Part shown: piece by piece, positions 14,813 to 41,759 of the stretch
Numbering within the stretch: position 1 is the first letter of the stretch
Layout of the letters: each line of letters starts with the position of its first letter
Origin: an uncultured Gemmatimonadales bacterium
GTDB lineage: Bacteria > Gemmatimonadota > Gemmatimonadetes > Gemmatimonadales > GWC2-71-9
Length of the DNA stretch: 64,000 bases
Direction: 5' to 3'
NCBI GenBank assembly: GCA_963779755.1
Contig: CAVZZO010000003.1
Coordinates: 1,184,001-1,248,000 of the forward strand
Program-made: the position numbers and the translations under genes
The notes under the pieces: generated by a model
Seen by the model: the letters and a program-made list of their open reading frames with translations, nothing else
What the model was told of the DNA's origin: nothing
The model's database searches: none

Positions 14813-15835
14813 GTGCCCAACGCTGCCCCCTCGCCCCGCATCCTCCTCGTCCGCTTCAGCTCGATCGGCGACATCCTGCTCACCACCCCGCTGGTGCGGG
14901 CGCTGCGGGAGCGGTATCCGCCGGCGGAGATCACCTATCTCACCAAGGCGGCATTCGCCCCGCTGGTGCGGGACAATCCCCGGATCACCCGGGTCCTCAC
15001 GCTCGAGCCGGGCGCCCGGCTCCGCCCGCTGGCCGCAGAGCTGCGTGCGCTGCGGTGCACCCACCTGCTGGATCTCCACGGCAGCACCCGCAGCCGCGCC
15101 CTCCGGCTCCTGGTGCCCGGCCGGTGGCGCGGGTACCGCCACCACCGGGTGGCCCGGGAGATGCTGATCCGCTTCAAGCGCGACATCTACCCGCGGCAGC
15201 TGCCGGTGGCCGAACGCTACTTCGATGCCGCGGCGGGGCTGGATGTCCACCCCGACGGCCGCCCGCCGGAGTTGTACTGCGCCCCCGGCGTGGACGCAGC
15301 GGTGGGAGAGTGGCTGGAAGCCCGGAGACTGGCGGAAGGCCCCCTGCTGGTTTTCGCGCCCGGCGCGGCTCACGCCACCAAACAGTGGCCCGCAGCATCC
15401 TGGCGGACGCTCACCGCGTCGGTCCTCACGCAGGGGTGGAGGGTGGTCTTCGCCGGCGGCCCCGGGGACGCGACCCTCTGCCGCGAGCTGGCCGCCGCGG
15501 GAGGCCCCGCCACGGCCAGCGCGGCGGGCGAGTTCTCCCTGCAGCAGACCGGCGCGCTCCTGGCACGGGCACGCGCGCTGGTCTCGGGCGACACGGGAGT
15601 CATGCACCTGGGGACGGCGGTGGGCACGCCGGTGGTGGCGCTCTTCGGGCCGACGGTGCGGCAATTCGGCTTCTTCCCCTATACCCGTGCCGCGACGGTG
15701 CTGGACCTGCCGCTCGATTGCCGCCCCTGCACCGCCTGGGGTACCGAACGCTGCCCCCTGGGCCATCATCGCTGCCTGCGCGACCTGCTCCCGGCGGATG
15801 TGCTGGGCGCACTCCCCGACCCCGCTCATGGTTGA
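14813..15835 (+). CDS. LPS heptosyltransferase (GT9, WaaF-like)
   Basis: RFSSIGDILLTTP, APGAAHATKQWP, SGDTGVMHLGTAVGTPVVALFGPT. Confidence 0.9.
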   Translation: MPNAAPSPRILLVRFSSIGDILLTTPLVRALRERYPPAEITYLTKAAFAPLVRDNPRITRVLTLEPGARLRPLAAELRALRCTHLLDLHGSTRSRALRLLVPGRWRGYRHHRVAREMLIRFKRDIYPRQLPVAERYFDAAAGLDVHPDGRPPELYCAPGVDAAVGEWLEARRLAEGPLLVFAPGAAHATKQWPAASWRTLTASVLTQGWRVVFAGGPGDATLCRELAAAGGPATASAAGEFSLQQTGALLARARALVSGDTGVMHLGTAVGTPVVALFGPTVRQFGFFPYTRAATVLDLPLDCRPCTAWGTERCPLGHHRCLRDLLPADVLGALPDPAHG

Positions 15836-16223
15836 CGGCGACGGCAGCGAACTGACCCTGCTGCGGCTGCTGTCCGAAGCGGTGCGCGGCCCCCGGCGCG
15901 AAGGCCTCTACGCGATCTGGCTCACCGTGCGCGCGGCCCGCGACCTGACGCTGGATCCTCCCCTGCCGCCCGCCGCGCTGGATCGCCGGCTGGCGGCGCT
16001 GCAGCACCGTCTGGCCACGCTCACCCTTTCCTCCGCCCTGCGCCGCTGCCTGCCGGCCGCCCTGGCCCAGCTGAAATCCGCCGACCGGACCGCCGCCGCA
16101 CTGGCGTTGAGCCAGCTGGTGGCACCGGTGCGCGAAACGCTCGGCGGCGAAGCGGCCGATGCGGTACAGCAGGCGGCGAAGGGGGCGCGTCGAACGGGCG
16201 GGGGGACAACCCGGTCGTCCTAG
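15828..16223 (+). CDS. Hypothetical helical protein
   Basis: ATG overlapping upstream gene end, host-like codon usage, 131 aa. Confidence 0.7.
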   Translation: MVDGDGSELTLLRLLSEAVRGPRREGLYAIWLTVRAARDLTLDPPLPPAALDRRLAALQHRLATLTLSSALRRCLPAALAQLKSADRTAAALALSQLVAPVRETLGGEAADAVQQAAKGARRTGGGTTRSS

Positions 16224-16257
16224 CTTTCTCGATCACTACAGGGGCCGAGAATACGAA

Positions 16258-16287
16258 GAGGGAAAGGGACGGGGGTCCCTTTCCCTC
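16258..16287. terminator. 13-bp perfect hairpin, probable terminator
   Basis: GAGGGAAAGGGAC-GGGG-GTCCCTTTCCCTC; weak U-rich tail (TTCGTATTCT) on the minus strand. Confidence 0.6.
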
Positions 16288-16309
16288 CTCAGCCGGCGCG
16301 GCGCCCGCC

Positions 16310-16390
16310 TTACGTCGAGTAGGGGTTTGTGGCCAGTGCAGCTGCCACCGCGCGTAAAACGACGAGCGTCCGACGTCCTGTGTTGCCCAT
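16310..16390 (-). CDS. Candidate 26-aa small ORF (MGNTGRRTLVVLRAVAAALATNPYST)
   Basis: ATG with G-rich upstream run, lies between a sigma54-like promoter and a hairpin; could instead be non-coding. Confidence 0.3.
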   Translation of the reverse strand: MGNTGRRTLVVLRAVAAALATNPYST

Positions 16391-16437
16391 CCCCCCACCG
16401 GGAGGAGTCAGTTCCCGTCGGGTACCATCCAGGAAGG

Positions 16438-16452
16438 GCAAGAGCGGGGCCA
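16438..16452 (-). promoter_or_regulatory. Sigma54 (-24/-12) promoter
   Basis: Minus strand TGGCCCCGCTCTTGC = TGGC-N7-TTGC (GG-N10-GC). Confidence 0.6.
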
Positions 16453-16615
16453 CTCCGGGCTCTGGCCCTGCGCAACAGTTTGACACCCCTGCCCGAGCCG
16501 TTCCCCTGCTTACACTTGCACCCTGCCGGCCCCAAACGCGCTGCACCAAAACTCGACAACGAGCCGCGCGGCGCCCGGATATCCCCGGCCGTTCCCGACC
16601 CGCTATTTTGCAAAC

Positions 16616-17485
16616 ATGCCGTCCAGCGGTGGGCGCCGCCCATCTTCCGATTCCGCCGAAGCGATCGTCAGCCGGGTAGATGCCGCCCGAAGCGGCGCAA
16701 CCCCGACCGATACCGTCCCGTCCGGCTATCCGTCGCTCGATCGCGTGCTGGGGGGAGGATTCCGCCGCCAGGACCTGGTCATCCTGGCCGGCGACACCGG
16801 ATCGGGGAAGAGCGCGCTGGCGCTGGGCATCGCCATCCGGAGCGCACTGGCGGGAATGCCGGCAGTGTACTGCTCGGGCGAGATGACCGAAGAGCGCCTG
16901 ATGGAACGGGCCCTCGCCATGGAAGGACGCGCGCCGGTCGATGATCTCCGCAGCGGCCGCCTGGCCGATGCCACCCGCGCGGCACTCGGAGCCGCCGCGG
17001 TGCGGCTGCGGGATCTGCCGCTCATCTTCCGCCGGCTGTCCGGGGGGAGCTTCGAGGAGGTGGCCGCCTGCGCCGAAATCATCCCGCGCCGAGCGCTGGT
17101 GGTGGTCGATCCGCTGCAGATGGTGGAACCGCCTTCGCCGGGAGCCACGCTGGAGGAATCCGAGGCGCTGGCGATTCGCGCGCTCAAGGCGATGGCGCTG
17201 GAGCGCAACCTCACCGTCCTGGCGCTCTCCCGGCTGCAGCATTTTACCCGCCGGGAAGACCCCCGTCCCACCCTGGACGACCTCGGGGCTGCCGGGGCGG
17301 CCCGGCAACATGCGGATATCGTGCTGGCGCTCTATCGGGAGGAGATGTACCAGCCGGGCACGGGAGTGGAAGGGGCGACCGAGCTACTGCTGGCCAAGAA
17401 CCGGAACGGCCCCGGCGGGTTCGTGGATCTCTACTTCTACCGCCGCTGGCTCCGCTTCGAGGACATGCTCGACCCGGACCACTGA
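16616..17485 (+). CDS. DnaB-like helicase, C-terminal ATPase domain only
   Basis: SGYPSLDRVLGGG, GDTGSGKS, SGEM, VDPLQ, LKAMALE, RPTLDDL, ADIVLALYRE, AKNRNGP; only 289 aa. Confidence 0.85.
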   Translation: MPSSGGRRPSSDSAEAIVSRVDAARSGATPTDTVPSGYPSLDRVLGGGFRRQDLVILAGDTGSGKSALALGIAIRSALAGMPAVYCSGEMTEERLMERALAMEGRAPVDDLRSGRLADATRAALGAAAVRLRDLPLIFRRLSGGSFEEVAACAEIIPRRALVVVDPLQMVEPPSPGATLEESEALAIRALKAMALERNLTVLALSRLQHFTRREDPRPTLDDLGAAGAARQHADIVLALYREEMYQPGTGVEGATELLLAKNRNGPGGFVDLYFYRRWLRFEDMLDPDH

Positions 17486-22551: not shown

Positions 22552-24068
<1,517 letters not shown>

Positions 24069-33162: not shown

Positions 33163-33177
33163 TGGCACCGACCTTGC
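33163..33177 (+). promoter_or_regulatory. Sigma54 (-24/-12) promoter
   Basis: TGGCACCGACCTTGC, near-consensus TGGCAC-N5-TTGC. Confidence 0.75.
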
Positions 33178-33187
33178 CCTTACGATT

Positions 33188-33336
33188 CCCCGGATGCCGG
33201 GCCCCCTGGCCCGGCCAGGAAAGTGGCAGGTCGAAGAAGAGTGGAGCGGACACTGGGGTCCGTTTCCGATATGACTCAGGGGGCGGCCTGTCACCCCTCA
33301 TGCGAAAGGGCCTGCGCGAAATGCGCAGGCCCTTTT
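33188..33336 (+). ncRNA. Candidate sigma54-dependent small RNA (~150 nt)
   Basis: Between sigma54 promoter and intrinsic terminator; no convincing ORF; internal hairpins; ends inferred. Confidence 0.5.
33305..33336 (+). terminator. Intrinsic terminator (possibly bidirectional)
   Basis: AAAGGGCCTGCGC-GAAAT-GCGCAGGCCCTTTT. Confidence 0.85.
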
Positions 33337-33358
33337 GCCTGCCGGCACCCGAACCCTC

Positions 33359-40412: not shown

Positions 40413-41759
40413 TCAGACCGCGATGCTGTACCGTTTGATCTTGTTGATCAGGGTGGCCCGGGAGATCCCCAGCTCCAGGGCGGCCCGGGTACGGTTTCCG
40501 CTGTGGTGCCGCAGCGTCCGCTCGATGTGCTGCCGCTCCAGATCGTCCAGCGACAGCGGGGTATGCCGCCGGTCGCCCGGGCCGGCCCGGGCGCGGAACT
40601 CGCCCGGCAGGTGCTCGACCTGCACCTCGGGCTTCCCCTGCGCCAGGATCAGCGCCCGCTCCAGGACGTTGCGCATCTCGCGCACGTTCCCGGGCCAGGC
40701 ATAGCTGAGCAGGCGCTCCAGCGCCTCGGACGAAATCTGCTCCGGGCCGCCCGGCACCTGGCTCCGCAGATCGGCCATGATCCGGCTGATGAGCTGGAGC
40801 TTGTCCTCGCGCGAGCGGTCGCGCACCGGAGGAAGATGCAGCGGCATGACACTCAGCCGGTAGTACAGGTCCTCACGGAACCGGCCGGCCTCGACTTCCG
40901 CGGCGATGTCCTTGTTGGTGGCGGTAATGAGCCGGACATCCACGCTGATCTCCCGGGTGCCGCCCAGCCGGCGGAAGCTTTTCGTCTCCAGCACCTTCAG
41001 CAGCTTGGGCTGCAGTTCCAGCGCCATGTCGCCGATTTCATCCAGAAAGATGGTGCCGTGATCGGCGATCTCGAAGAGCCCCTGCTTGCGCTCCTTGGCG
41101 TCGGTGAAGGCGCCCTTCTCGTGTCCGAACAGTTCGGAATCGAGGAACGTGGCGCTGAGGCCGCCGGCGTTCACCTCCACGAACGGCGCTTTGGCCCGGG
41201 GGCTCAGATTGTGGATCATCCGGGCCACCCAGCCCTTCCCCGACCCGCTCTCGCCTTCCAGCAGCACCGTGGTGCGTTCGCTCTGGGCCAGCAGGCCAAT
41301 CTGACGCGCAAATTCCTGCATGCCAGGCGAGCGGCCCAGGGATTCCAACCCCTGATCCGGCGCGATATGCGACAGGAGCATCTGGTTCACCCGCCGCAGG
41401 CGGACCTTGTCGGCCACCCGGGCGGTGGCGGCGACCAGATGCCCCATGTCGACCGGCTTGGTGAGAAAGTTCTCCGCGCCCAGCTGCATCGCGCGCACCG
41501 CGGTCGGCACGTCGCCGCCGCCCGTCAGCAGGATGACCGCCGCGCCCTGCTCCCGCAGCCGTTCCAGGACTTCCATCCCGTTCATCCCCGGCAGATGCAG
41601 ATCGAGGATGACGACGTCGGGCCGCTGCCGCTCGTAGCTGCCGAGACCGGCCTCGCCGCTCAGCTCGCGGTGGACCTCATAGCCCACCTGCTCGAAGTAG
41701 TTACCGATCGAGCGGAGCACCTCGACATCGTCGTCAATCAAGAGGACCGAATCCGCCAT
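40413..41759 (-). CDS. Sigma54-dependent response regulator (NtrC/AtoC family)
   Basis: Receiver domain, GESGSGK, SELFGHEKGAFTDA, FLDEIG, WPGNVRE, C-terminal HTH. Confidence 0.95.
   Translation of the reverse strand: MADSVLLIDDDVEVLRSIGNYFEQVGYEVHRELSGEAGLGSYERQRPDVVILDLHLPGMNGMEVLERLREQGAAVILLTGGGDVPTAVRAMQLGAENFLTKPVDMGHLVAATARVADKVRLRRVNQMLLSHIAPDQGLESLGRSPGMQEFARQIGLLAQSERTTVLLEGESGSGKGWVARMIHNLSPRAKAPFVEVNAGGLSATFLDSELFGHEKGAFTDAKERKQGLFEIADHGTIFLDEIGDMALELQPKLLKVLETKSFRRLGGTREISVDVRLITATNKDIAAEVEAGRFREDLYYRLSVMPLHLPPVRDRSREDKLQLISRIMADLRSQVPGGPEQISSEALERLLSYAWPGNVREMRNVLERALILAQGKPEVQVEHLPGEFRARAGPGDRRHTPLSLDDLERQHIERTLRHHSGNRTRAALELGISRATLINKIKRYSIAV

Follow-up and report, generated by a model that had tools for sequence, protein, structure and literature searches.

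Small RNAs whose expression depends on sigma-54 are a known kind, and Pxr, CrcZ and NrsZ are among them. Two further examples are the closest in outline to the locus considered here. One is the GlmY/GlmZ system of Enterobacteriaceae, of which glmY is given as sigma-54-dependent in the sections of PMC3162934 that deal with it. The other is the group of Qrr1-5 RNAs in Vibrio, which depend on LuxO and sigma-54 according to the portion of 10.1101/2021.07.01.450815 that concerns them. The present locus lies in a 64,000-nucleotide (nt) stretch of DNA, hereafter called the window, from the genome of an uncultured soil bacterium of the Gemmatimonadales (C3:1184001-1248000, where C3 is one of the four contigs). 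A 392-nt spacer at 16224-16615 of the window parts a small gene, p130, from a gene for a paralogue of DnaB that has the DnaB_C domain only, and its minus strand carries a candidate sigma-54 promoter followed by a terminator-like hairpin. We consider it possible, with a chance that falls a little short of even, that this spacer unit is a species-specific, sigma-54-driven non-coding transcript of ~180 nt.

Judged by its sequence, the spacer unit is similar in outline to the known sigma-54-dependent small RNAs and is a member of no described family. It would share with GlmY/GlmZ a small RNA gene, a sigma-54 promoter and a terminator, but the enterobacterial RNAs are conserved and have known activators and targets, and the spacer unit has neither a sequence match nor an Rfam match to them. 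With Qrr1-5 it would share an intergenic position and a short, sigma-54-driven regulatory product. The Vibrio RNAs, however, form a family that is conserved, is present in several copies and has a seed region in common, whereas the spacer unit is single-copy and unconserved and has no Rfam match. A third comparison can be made with phage 'moron'-like cassettes and type I toxin loci, in which a compact module of promoter, short open reading frame (ORF) and terminator sits between conserved genes and has a codon usage unlike that of the host. The spacer differs from these loci in its ordinary GC content (67-70% in 500-nt windows versus 68.5% for the genome), in its lack of similarity to phages and plasmids, and in encoding a peptide that is unconvincing as a membrane helix.

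The sigma-54 consensus is TGGCAC-N5-TTGC, with GG at -24 and GC at -12 held at a fixed spacing. The promoter candidate of the spacer reads TGGCCC-N5-TTGCCC at 16452-16436 on the minus strand, with GG at -24 and GC at -12, and the first-pass annotation was right to place TGGCCCCGCTCTTGC at 16452-16438 of that strand. A consensus of the TGGCAC-N5-TTGC type has been used in promoter searches, as stated in part of PMC3162934. The genome has rpoN (Sigma54_DBD, 215.6 bits) and at least 10 activator genes, with 13 Sigma54_activat matches above 130 bits genome-wide. One enhancer-binding protein gene lies within the window itself at ~40839-41336 (minus strand; Sigma54_activat, 218.7 bits), ~24 kb from the spacer unit and ~7.5 kb from a second sigma-54 unit at 33163-33345 that is described below.

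The placement of such sites relative to genes was evaluated with our own gene caller, which is based on GC content at third codon positions (GC3) and divides the 4.23-Mb genome (68.5% GC) into 89% coding DNA, with 3,682 genes, and 11% non-coding DNA; the caller misses some genes, such as a second pilin gene, and its coding and non-coding labels are therefore approximate. On both strands of the genome, the motif TGGC[AC]C-N5-TTGCCC is found six times, always in the non-coding fraction. The five matches other than the spacer site precede a gene for an N_methyl pilin, a pilin-like ORF recognized by eye only, a gene for a DUF4402 protein, an ORF of 53 amino acids, and the small RNA at 33163. Canonical TGGCAC-N5-TTGC sites are non-coding in eight of nine cases, and the reversed control in neither of its two. 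For the TGGCCC-N5-TTGC variant, to which the spacer site belongs, 6 of 17 copies are non-coding and 11 lie in called genes, compared with 4 non-coding copies of 16 for its reversed control. Each of the other five non-coding copies of this variant is directed at a gene start at a distance of 34-197 nt, and the genes in question encode GroES (groES), a polysaccharide deacetylase-GT2 fusion, a 656-amino-acid protein, a GT1 glycosyltransferase and a GGDEF-EAL protein. Three of these five sites adjoin canonical TGGCAC sites, in an exopolysaccharide cluster or in a divergent pair.

Weight matrices rank the spacer site high. With a matrix built from eight canonical sites, it scores 16.2 bits, a value reached by 13 sites in total: the eight training sites, two non-coding sites (the spacer site being one of them) and three coding sites. 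A second matrix, built from 13 sites with the spacer site excluded, gives it 19.1 bits, and none of the 12 sites that score at least as well is coding. The spacer site is probably a real sigma-54 binding site. This estimate would be higher but for three points, and is tempered because the fifth position departs from the consensus (C in place of A, the only departure), because ~1.4 copies of TGGCCC-N5-TTGC would be expected by chance in non-coding DNA (by arithmetic from the 11 coding copies), and because the spacer site is the sole one of the six non-coding TGGCCC sites that has no called gene start downstream.

The second element is an intrinsic-terminator-like hairpin which, together with its tail, occupies 16247-16290 on the minus strand. 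The perfect 13-bp stem noted earlier at 16258-16287 is present, with a 4-nt CCCC loop, and it extends to 16 pairs, one of them G-U, at 16255-16290. It is followed by an interrupted T tract (UUCGUAUUCU); of the 10 tail nucleotides, 6 are T on the minus strand versus 1 on the plus strand. A generic terminator scan of positions 15500-17200, which needs 5 T in 8 nt, did not call this hairpin, and a generic sigma-70 promoter scan of the same interval returned nothing. Genome-wide, a survey of perfect stems of at least 10 bp with loops of 3-8 nt found 315 hairpins (195 non-coding, 120 coding). A 10-nt tail containing 6 T or more follows 22 of the 195 non-coding hairpins versus 1 of the 120 coding ones. 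A strand can be assigned to 38 of the T-tailed hairpins, and a co-oriented stop codon precedes 24 of these by 5-143 nt.

Twenty-seven hairpins have strongly one-sided tails. In 13 of them the tail agrees in orientation with the single gene end close by, and in 2 it is discordant; a further 5 are situated between convergent genes, and the other 7 have no called gene end in their vicinity. When a gene end lies within 150 nt on one side only, the tail is co-oriented with that gene in 13 of 15 cases, and the spacer hairpin, 35 nt after the p130 stop, is one of the two exceptions. Because its tail is discordant with p130, the hairpin is better read as marking where an unannotated minus-strand transcript ends than as the p130 terminator. 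The orientation of its T-tail on the minus strand is typical of terminators in this genome. Furthermore, the promoter candidate and the hairpin are co-oriented, and the ~150 nt that separate them contain no called gene. Given 42 T-tailed perfect hairpins in 480 kb of non-coding DNA, we estimate a chance below 1% that one would fall, in the same orientation, 100-250 nt downstream of a random non-coding position.

Genome-wide, one further hairpin has a one-sided T-tail that runs against the adjacent gene, and it is also in the window, on the minus strand at 22552-22575. It has a 10-bp stem and 5 T on the minus strand, a plus-strand gene ends 6 nt before it, and it may likewise mark where another unannotated transcript of the minus strand ends. 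T-tailed perfect hairpins with no called gene end nearby include a group of three at C3:1446621-1447373 and a pair at C3:61492-61699, the latter ~3 kb downstream of the 3' end of the 16S gene.

If these two elements function as predicted, sigma-54 RNA polymerase would bind at TGGCCC-N5-TTGCCC, an enhancer-binding activator would trigger transcription from a start near 16426, which is placed ~12 nt after the GC of the -12 element, and elongation would stop at the 13-16-bp hairpin with its U-rich tail (16290-16247), to leave an RNA of ~180 nt. The first-pass annotation had proposed a transcript of this kind, divergent from the DnaB_C paralogue (16616-17485, plus strand) as is indeed the case, and the promoter statistics and terminator-strand statistics within the genome back a terminated minus-strand transcript of ~175-180 nt. 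All the elements listed in that annotation stand at their given coordinates, but the promoter-like site and the hairpin are the only two that exceed chance expectation. The product would be a young, species-specific non-coding small RNA that might have little or no function yet, and any role in trans would be putative. The unit would have arrived with the 392-nt segment that parts p130 from the DnaB_C paralogue, or have arisen in it, and the paralogue would retain its own proximal TATTTT box.

The putative 5' leader (16391-16426, minus strand) contains CUCCUCCC and a GGUGGGGGG run. The string ACTCCTCCC-GGT-GGGGGG-ATG is present as it had been described, together with the suggestion that a hairpin here could mask the ribosome-binding site. 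When the first 67 nt are folded at minimum energy, such a hairpin does appear, but the fold is no stabler than expected by chance (z = +0.55, with 139 of 200 shuffled sequences folding at least as well), and the translational control that was built on it is likewise unsupported. For the 182-nt RNA as a whole, z is -2.0 (8 of 200 shuffles as good), mostly on account of the terminator, and the opposite strand gives z = -1.2.

Upstream of the promoter, two sites with a 6-5-6 arrangement had been pointed out: TGCGCA-N5-TTGACA at 16469-16485 (TGCGCAACAGTTTGACA) and TGCACC-N5-TCGACA at 16542-16558 (TGCACCAAAACTCGACA), both given on the plus strand. Both are there, but as activator sites they do not rise beyond chance. 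The two observed matches in the window compare with 0.07 expected, a circular figure as the pattern was written from these very sites. Genome-wide, the pattern has five matches, and the other three fall in called genes, none within 300 nt of a listed sigma-54 site. An activator site shared with the upstream region of one pilin gene was also considered, on the basis of an 11-mer and a 9-mer in common, which differ in spacing and orientation. Random segments share a mean of 1.4 nine-mers, and as about one such 11-mer match is estimated to arise by chance, the shared site was rejected.

The sigma-54 unit elsewhere in the window offers an instructive comparison. At 33163-33345 on the plus strand, between convergent genes, TGGCACCGACCTTGC is followed by a structured RNA of ~150 nt and a terminator. 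This RNA folds with z = -6.2, none of 200 shuffles being as good, and is conserved in four other genera, with TGGCA at -24 and GC at -12 identical in all five aligned sequences and compensatory changes in 10 of 38 predicted pairs. A covariance model built from it, R1, finds full-length matches in 24 of the 101 family genomes searched, which represent 19 of 78 genera, and no Rfam family matches the RNA at the gathering score. The unit has the appearance of a Gemmatimonadales family of sigma-54-dependent small RNAs that is as yet undescribed. The spacer unit shares its -12 context (CTTGCCCTT) and likewise combines an orphan promoter candidate, one that no called gene follows, with a predicted transcript in the same range of ~150-180 nt and a putative intrinsic terminator. 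It differs in that the 33163 unit is strongly structured and is conserved with its promoter across genera, whereas the spacer unit is weakly structured and found in one genome. Because the 33163 unit indicates that a sigma-54-driven small RNA exists in this lineage, the prior for the spacer unit is raised.

The spacer itself is confined to this genome. Relatives keep the gene order of family-9 glycosyltransferase (GT9), p130, paralogue, lipoprotein and YebC genes, and in many of them the p130 stop and the paralogue ATG are 3 nt apart or overlap. The gap between these two genes was taken at each locus from the p130 stop to the paralogue start, the latter being extrapolated from a tblastn alignment and accurate to a few codons. 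In a first set of 107 loci, made up of 27 from species genomes (our own included) and 80 from metagenome contigs, 86 have p130 upstream on the same strand. Gaps range from -11 to +43 nt in 83 of the 86, with 138 nt in one and 392 nt in our own genome only; the last locus, L012, gives -867 nt, which is taken as an artefact of a p130 frame that runs on without a stop. In a second set of 80 loci from species genomes, p130 is upstream in 79, and gaps range from -16 to +45 nt in 76 of these, with 80, 93 and 124 nt in the remaining three. Pooled, the sets comprise 164 non-self loci, which represent fewer distinct genomes as the two sets overlap. Of these loci, 159 have gaps between -16 and +45 nt and four have gaps of no more than 138 nt; the one left over is L012. 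Locus L017 comes from an unpublished genome (G014), and no result rests on it.

Several results weigh against a functional RNA, in addition to those that temper the promoter estimate. None of the 164 related loci examined contains the spacer or, with it, the promoter, the ORF and the hairpin, of which nothing is conserved. A sigma-54-like site at the p130/paralogue junction is absent in 186 loci. Searches of 40 relatives for a homologue of the spacer DNA yielded only short GC-rich matches, and comparison with plasmids and phages yielded no match. Outside the terminator the RNA has no notable structure (z = -2.0 for the whole, versus -6.2 for the conserved 33163 unit), and no Rfam family matches at the gathering score in the window, the best matches to the hairpin being spurious sub-threshold hits to eukaryotic families. 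Nor is the unit a paralogue of the 33163 unit, for it reaches at most 10.9 bits against R1, and in the hairpin only. Finally, no activator site for the spacer promoter was identified.

The lack of conservation must be read with the sampling in mind. Orthologues of the paralogue in relatives are 48-66% identical, and the nearest relative found among the metagenome contigs and species genomes stands at 66% protein identity in this protein. Because no relative closer than this was compared, absence of the spacer would speak of its youth and not of a lack of function. As we use it, not conserved is to be taken as absent at genus level and above.

The strongest alternative is that the spacer is inert, a decayed insertion remnant or a product of slippage or expansion, in which the sigma-54-like site is a chance match or a place of idle binding and the hairpin is a leftover or a 3' stabilizer of p130. 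This we regard as somewhat unlikely, yet to be taken seriously. Its restriction to one genome, the weak folding outside the hairpin, the chance expectation for TGGCCC sites and the missing gene start downstream all fit it. So does the lack of a frame with coding bias: the spacer shows no coding signal in any frame, with a GC3 of 0.55-0.74 in all three plus-strand phases versus 0.8-0.93 in one phase for the flanking genes. Non-coding hairpins that lack a T-tail are commonly found after genes, 96 of 153 lying within 150 nt of a gene end, and the distance of the spacer hairpin from the p130 stop would suit such a role. However, an inert spacer needs two independent rarities, a promoter score among the top dozen and a T-tailed perfect hairpin with its low chance of placement, to be co-oriented ~150 nt apart, and a terminator of p130 would be expected to have its T-tail on the other strand (13 concordant cases versus 2 discordant).

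Specific origins for the segment were also considered and set aside. Descent from a gene fragment was tried with tblastx against the genome itself, which gave scattered short matches only. A miniature transposable element or insertion-sequence remnant was likewise rejected; the spacer is single-copy, with no second copy in its own genome, and direct repeats were not seen at its flanks. Near the spacer borders there is an imperfect inverted pair of 12 nt (16192-16203 and 16583-16594), but an equally good pair, I5, is found elsewhere in the same 650 nt. The best two of the short spacer matches in relatives lie inside long ORFs of high GC3 and are due to chance.

A second alternative, which we judge unlikely, is that the spacer acts in cis as an insulator of a split operon. 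Read-through from p130 would be halted or delayed at the hairpin, a sigma-54 holoenzyme bound at or firing from the opposing promoter would block or collide with the incoming polymerase, and the RNA would be a by-product. Transcription of the DnaB_C paralogue would be independent of p130 and start at a proximal promoter of its own. The adjacency or overlap of p130 and the paralogue in 159 of 164 related loci implies co-expression, and here the two are 392 nt apart, with the sigma-54-type promoter facing incoming p130 transcription. Sigma-54 holoenzyme forms stable closed complexes in the absence of an activator, which also counts in favor of this proposal. The paralogue does have a TATTTT box at 16604-16609 (plus strand), 6 nt before its ATG, and TANNNT peaks genome-wide at exactly -12 from called starts, the position that this box occupies. 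In relatives with gaps of 13-43 nt, a TATCTT-like box is found 6-9 nt before the paralogue ATG, and among loci L010-L216 many relatives have a TATTTT or TATCTT-like box at this distance. The TATTTT box is probably a proximal promoter of the leaderless type that belongs to the paralogue, and the pattern suggests that leaderless or very-short-leader mRNAs are frequent in this lineage. Because the paralogue keeps its own proximal box, the rest of the spacer should not be needed for its expression. An insulator is disfavored by the lack of a plus-strand T-tail on the hairpin (1 T of 10); furthermore, nothing requires such a mechanism, and it has no parallel in the relatives whose gaps are 80-138 nt.

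A more elaborate version, quite unlikely in our estimation, combines elements of both functional readings. The spacer would hold a newly born regulatory gene whose promoter and terminator were assembled in a species-specific insertion and now yield a young small RNA; the insertion would also have uncoupled an operon that is elsewhere contiguous across Gemmatimonadales, and convergent sigma-54 transcription would gate read-through into the helicase-like gene under the signal of the activator.

The remaining proposal is an mRNA for the small, 26-residue peptide MGNTGRRTLVVLRAVAAALATNPYST, which could be membrane-bound or secreted, or resemble a type I toxin, and which might be made beside an RNA function. 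The 26-codon ORF is present where the first-pass annotation placed it (16390-16310 including the stop, minus strand), and its position is suitable: the ATG is 47 nt after the -12 element, when other sigma-54 sites are 34-197 nt from genes, and the stop is 22 nt before the hairpin, when terminators here follow stops by 5-60 nt. Moreover, young or imported small genes can be expected to show atypical codon usage on occasion. The codons nevertheless look non-native. GC3 is 17/26 (0.65) versus a mean of 0.87 for called genes, and the codon log-odds score is -10.3, as compared with a mean of +11.8 (sd 5.6) for 26-codon pieces of real genes, only 0.28% of which score so low; the 1,036 non-coding ATG-initiated ORFs average -14.0, and 33% of them score as high as this one. 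It also uses a TTA codon, whose rarity in a GC-rich genome is an expectation and not a count. None of the Shine-Dalgarno 4-mers GGAG, GAGG and AGGA occurs in the 30 nt before the ATG, whereas they precede 36% of 3040 called starts, with a peak at -12 to -9. A search of 200 other genomes of the order found no homologue (best E-value 0.27), and none occurs in any syntenic locus. The hydrophobic run is 12 residues long and broken by Arg, and the richness in Ala, Arg, Gly, Val and Leu would be expected of GC-rich DNA in any frame. Upstream of the ORF, its frame continues open for 333 codons, a common situation in DNA of such GC content, so that the openness of the frame means little. The ORF is probably incidental and looks non-coding, and a translated product of an established gene, including the small hydrophobic peptide that had been suggested, is thus improbable.

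Around the spacer, a response-regulator-PglZ gene (13111 to ~14670, minus strand) is followed by the GT9 gene (14813-15835, plus strand) and by p130 (15831-16223, plus strand), the upstream partner gene, which encodes 130 amino acids, belongs to no Pfam family and has an uncertain start at 15798 or 15831. Beyond the spacer, the DnaB_C paralogue encodes 289 amino acids (Pfam DnaB_C, E = 3.3e-44) and is 35% identical to the true DnaB, which is encoded elsewhere, on contig C1. A lipoprotein-like gene on the minus strand comes next, and the YebC gene lies beyond it. GT9, p130 and the DnaB_C-only paralogue, beside YebC, make up a conserved and tightly coupled set across Gemmatimonadales (14813-17485 and related loci). 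A search for tRNA and tmRNA genes returned none. One DNA sequencing run contains a 151-nt contig identical to 16260-16410, which may derive from the source sample and is silent on expression.

Sites of the same promoter class outside the window outline a candidate sigma-54 regulon (C3:1095716-1129974, C3:887252-891077, C1:1179018 and C3:112692). Its candidate members are two pilin genes, the second of which was found by eye after being missed by the gene caller, a site before groES, an exopolysaccharide-type cluster with several promoters that include a divergent TGGCAC/TGGCCC pair, and a DUF4402 gene divergent from a GGDEF-EAL gene. These classes agree with the theme of the 'bacterial exterior' that is set out in part of PMC3162934.

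Full-text literature searching, which was not an exhaustive survey, found no paper on sigma-54 small RNAs in Gemmatimonadota. Taken alone, the spacer unit would be a single unconserved candidate, valuable mainly as a test case. The practical gain is the definition of a sigma-54 promoter class for this genome, with pilins, an exopolysaccharide cluster, a GGDEF-EAL gene and DUF4402 among its apparent targets, and the recognition of the 33163 unit as a conserved, structured RNA family. If it is expressed, the spacer unit would be a second sigma-54-dependent small RNA in Gemmatimonadota, and it would provide a dated example of a regulatory RNA that arose in a recent insertion splitting a conserved gene pair.

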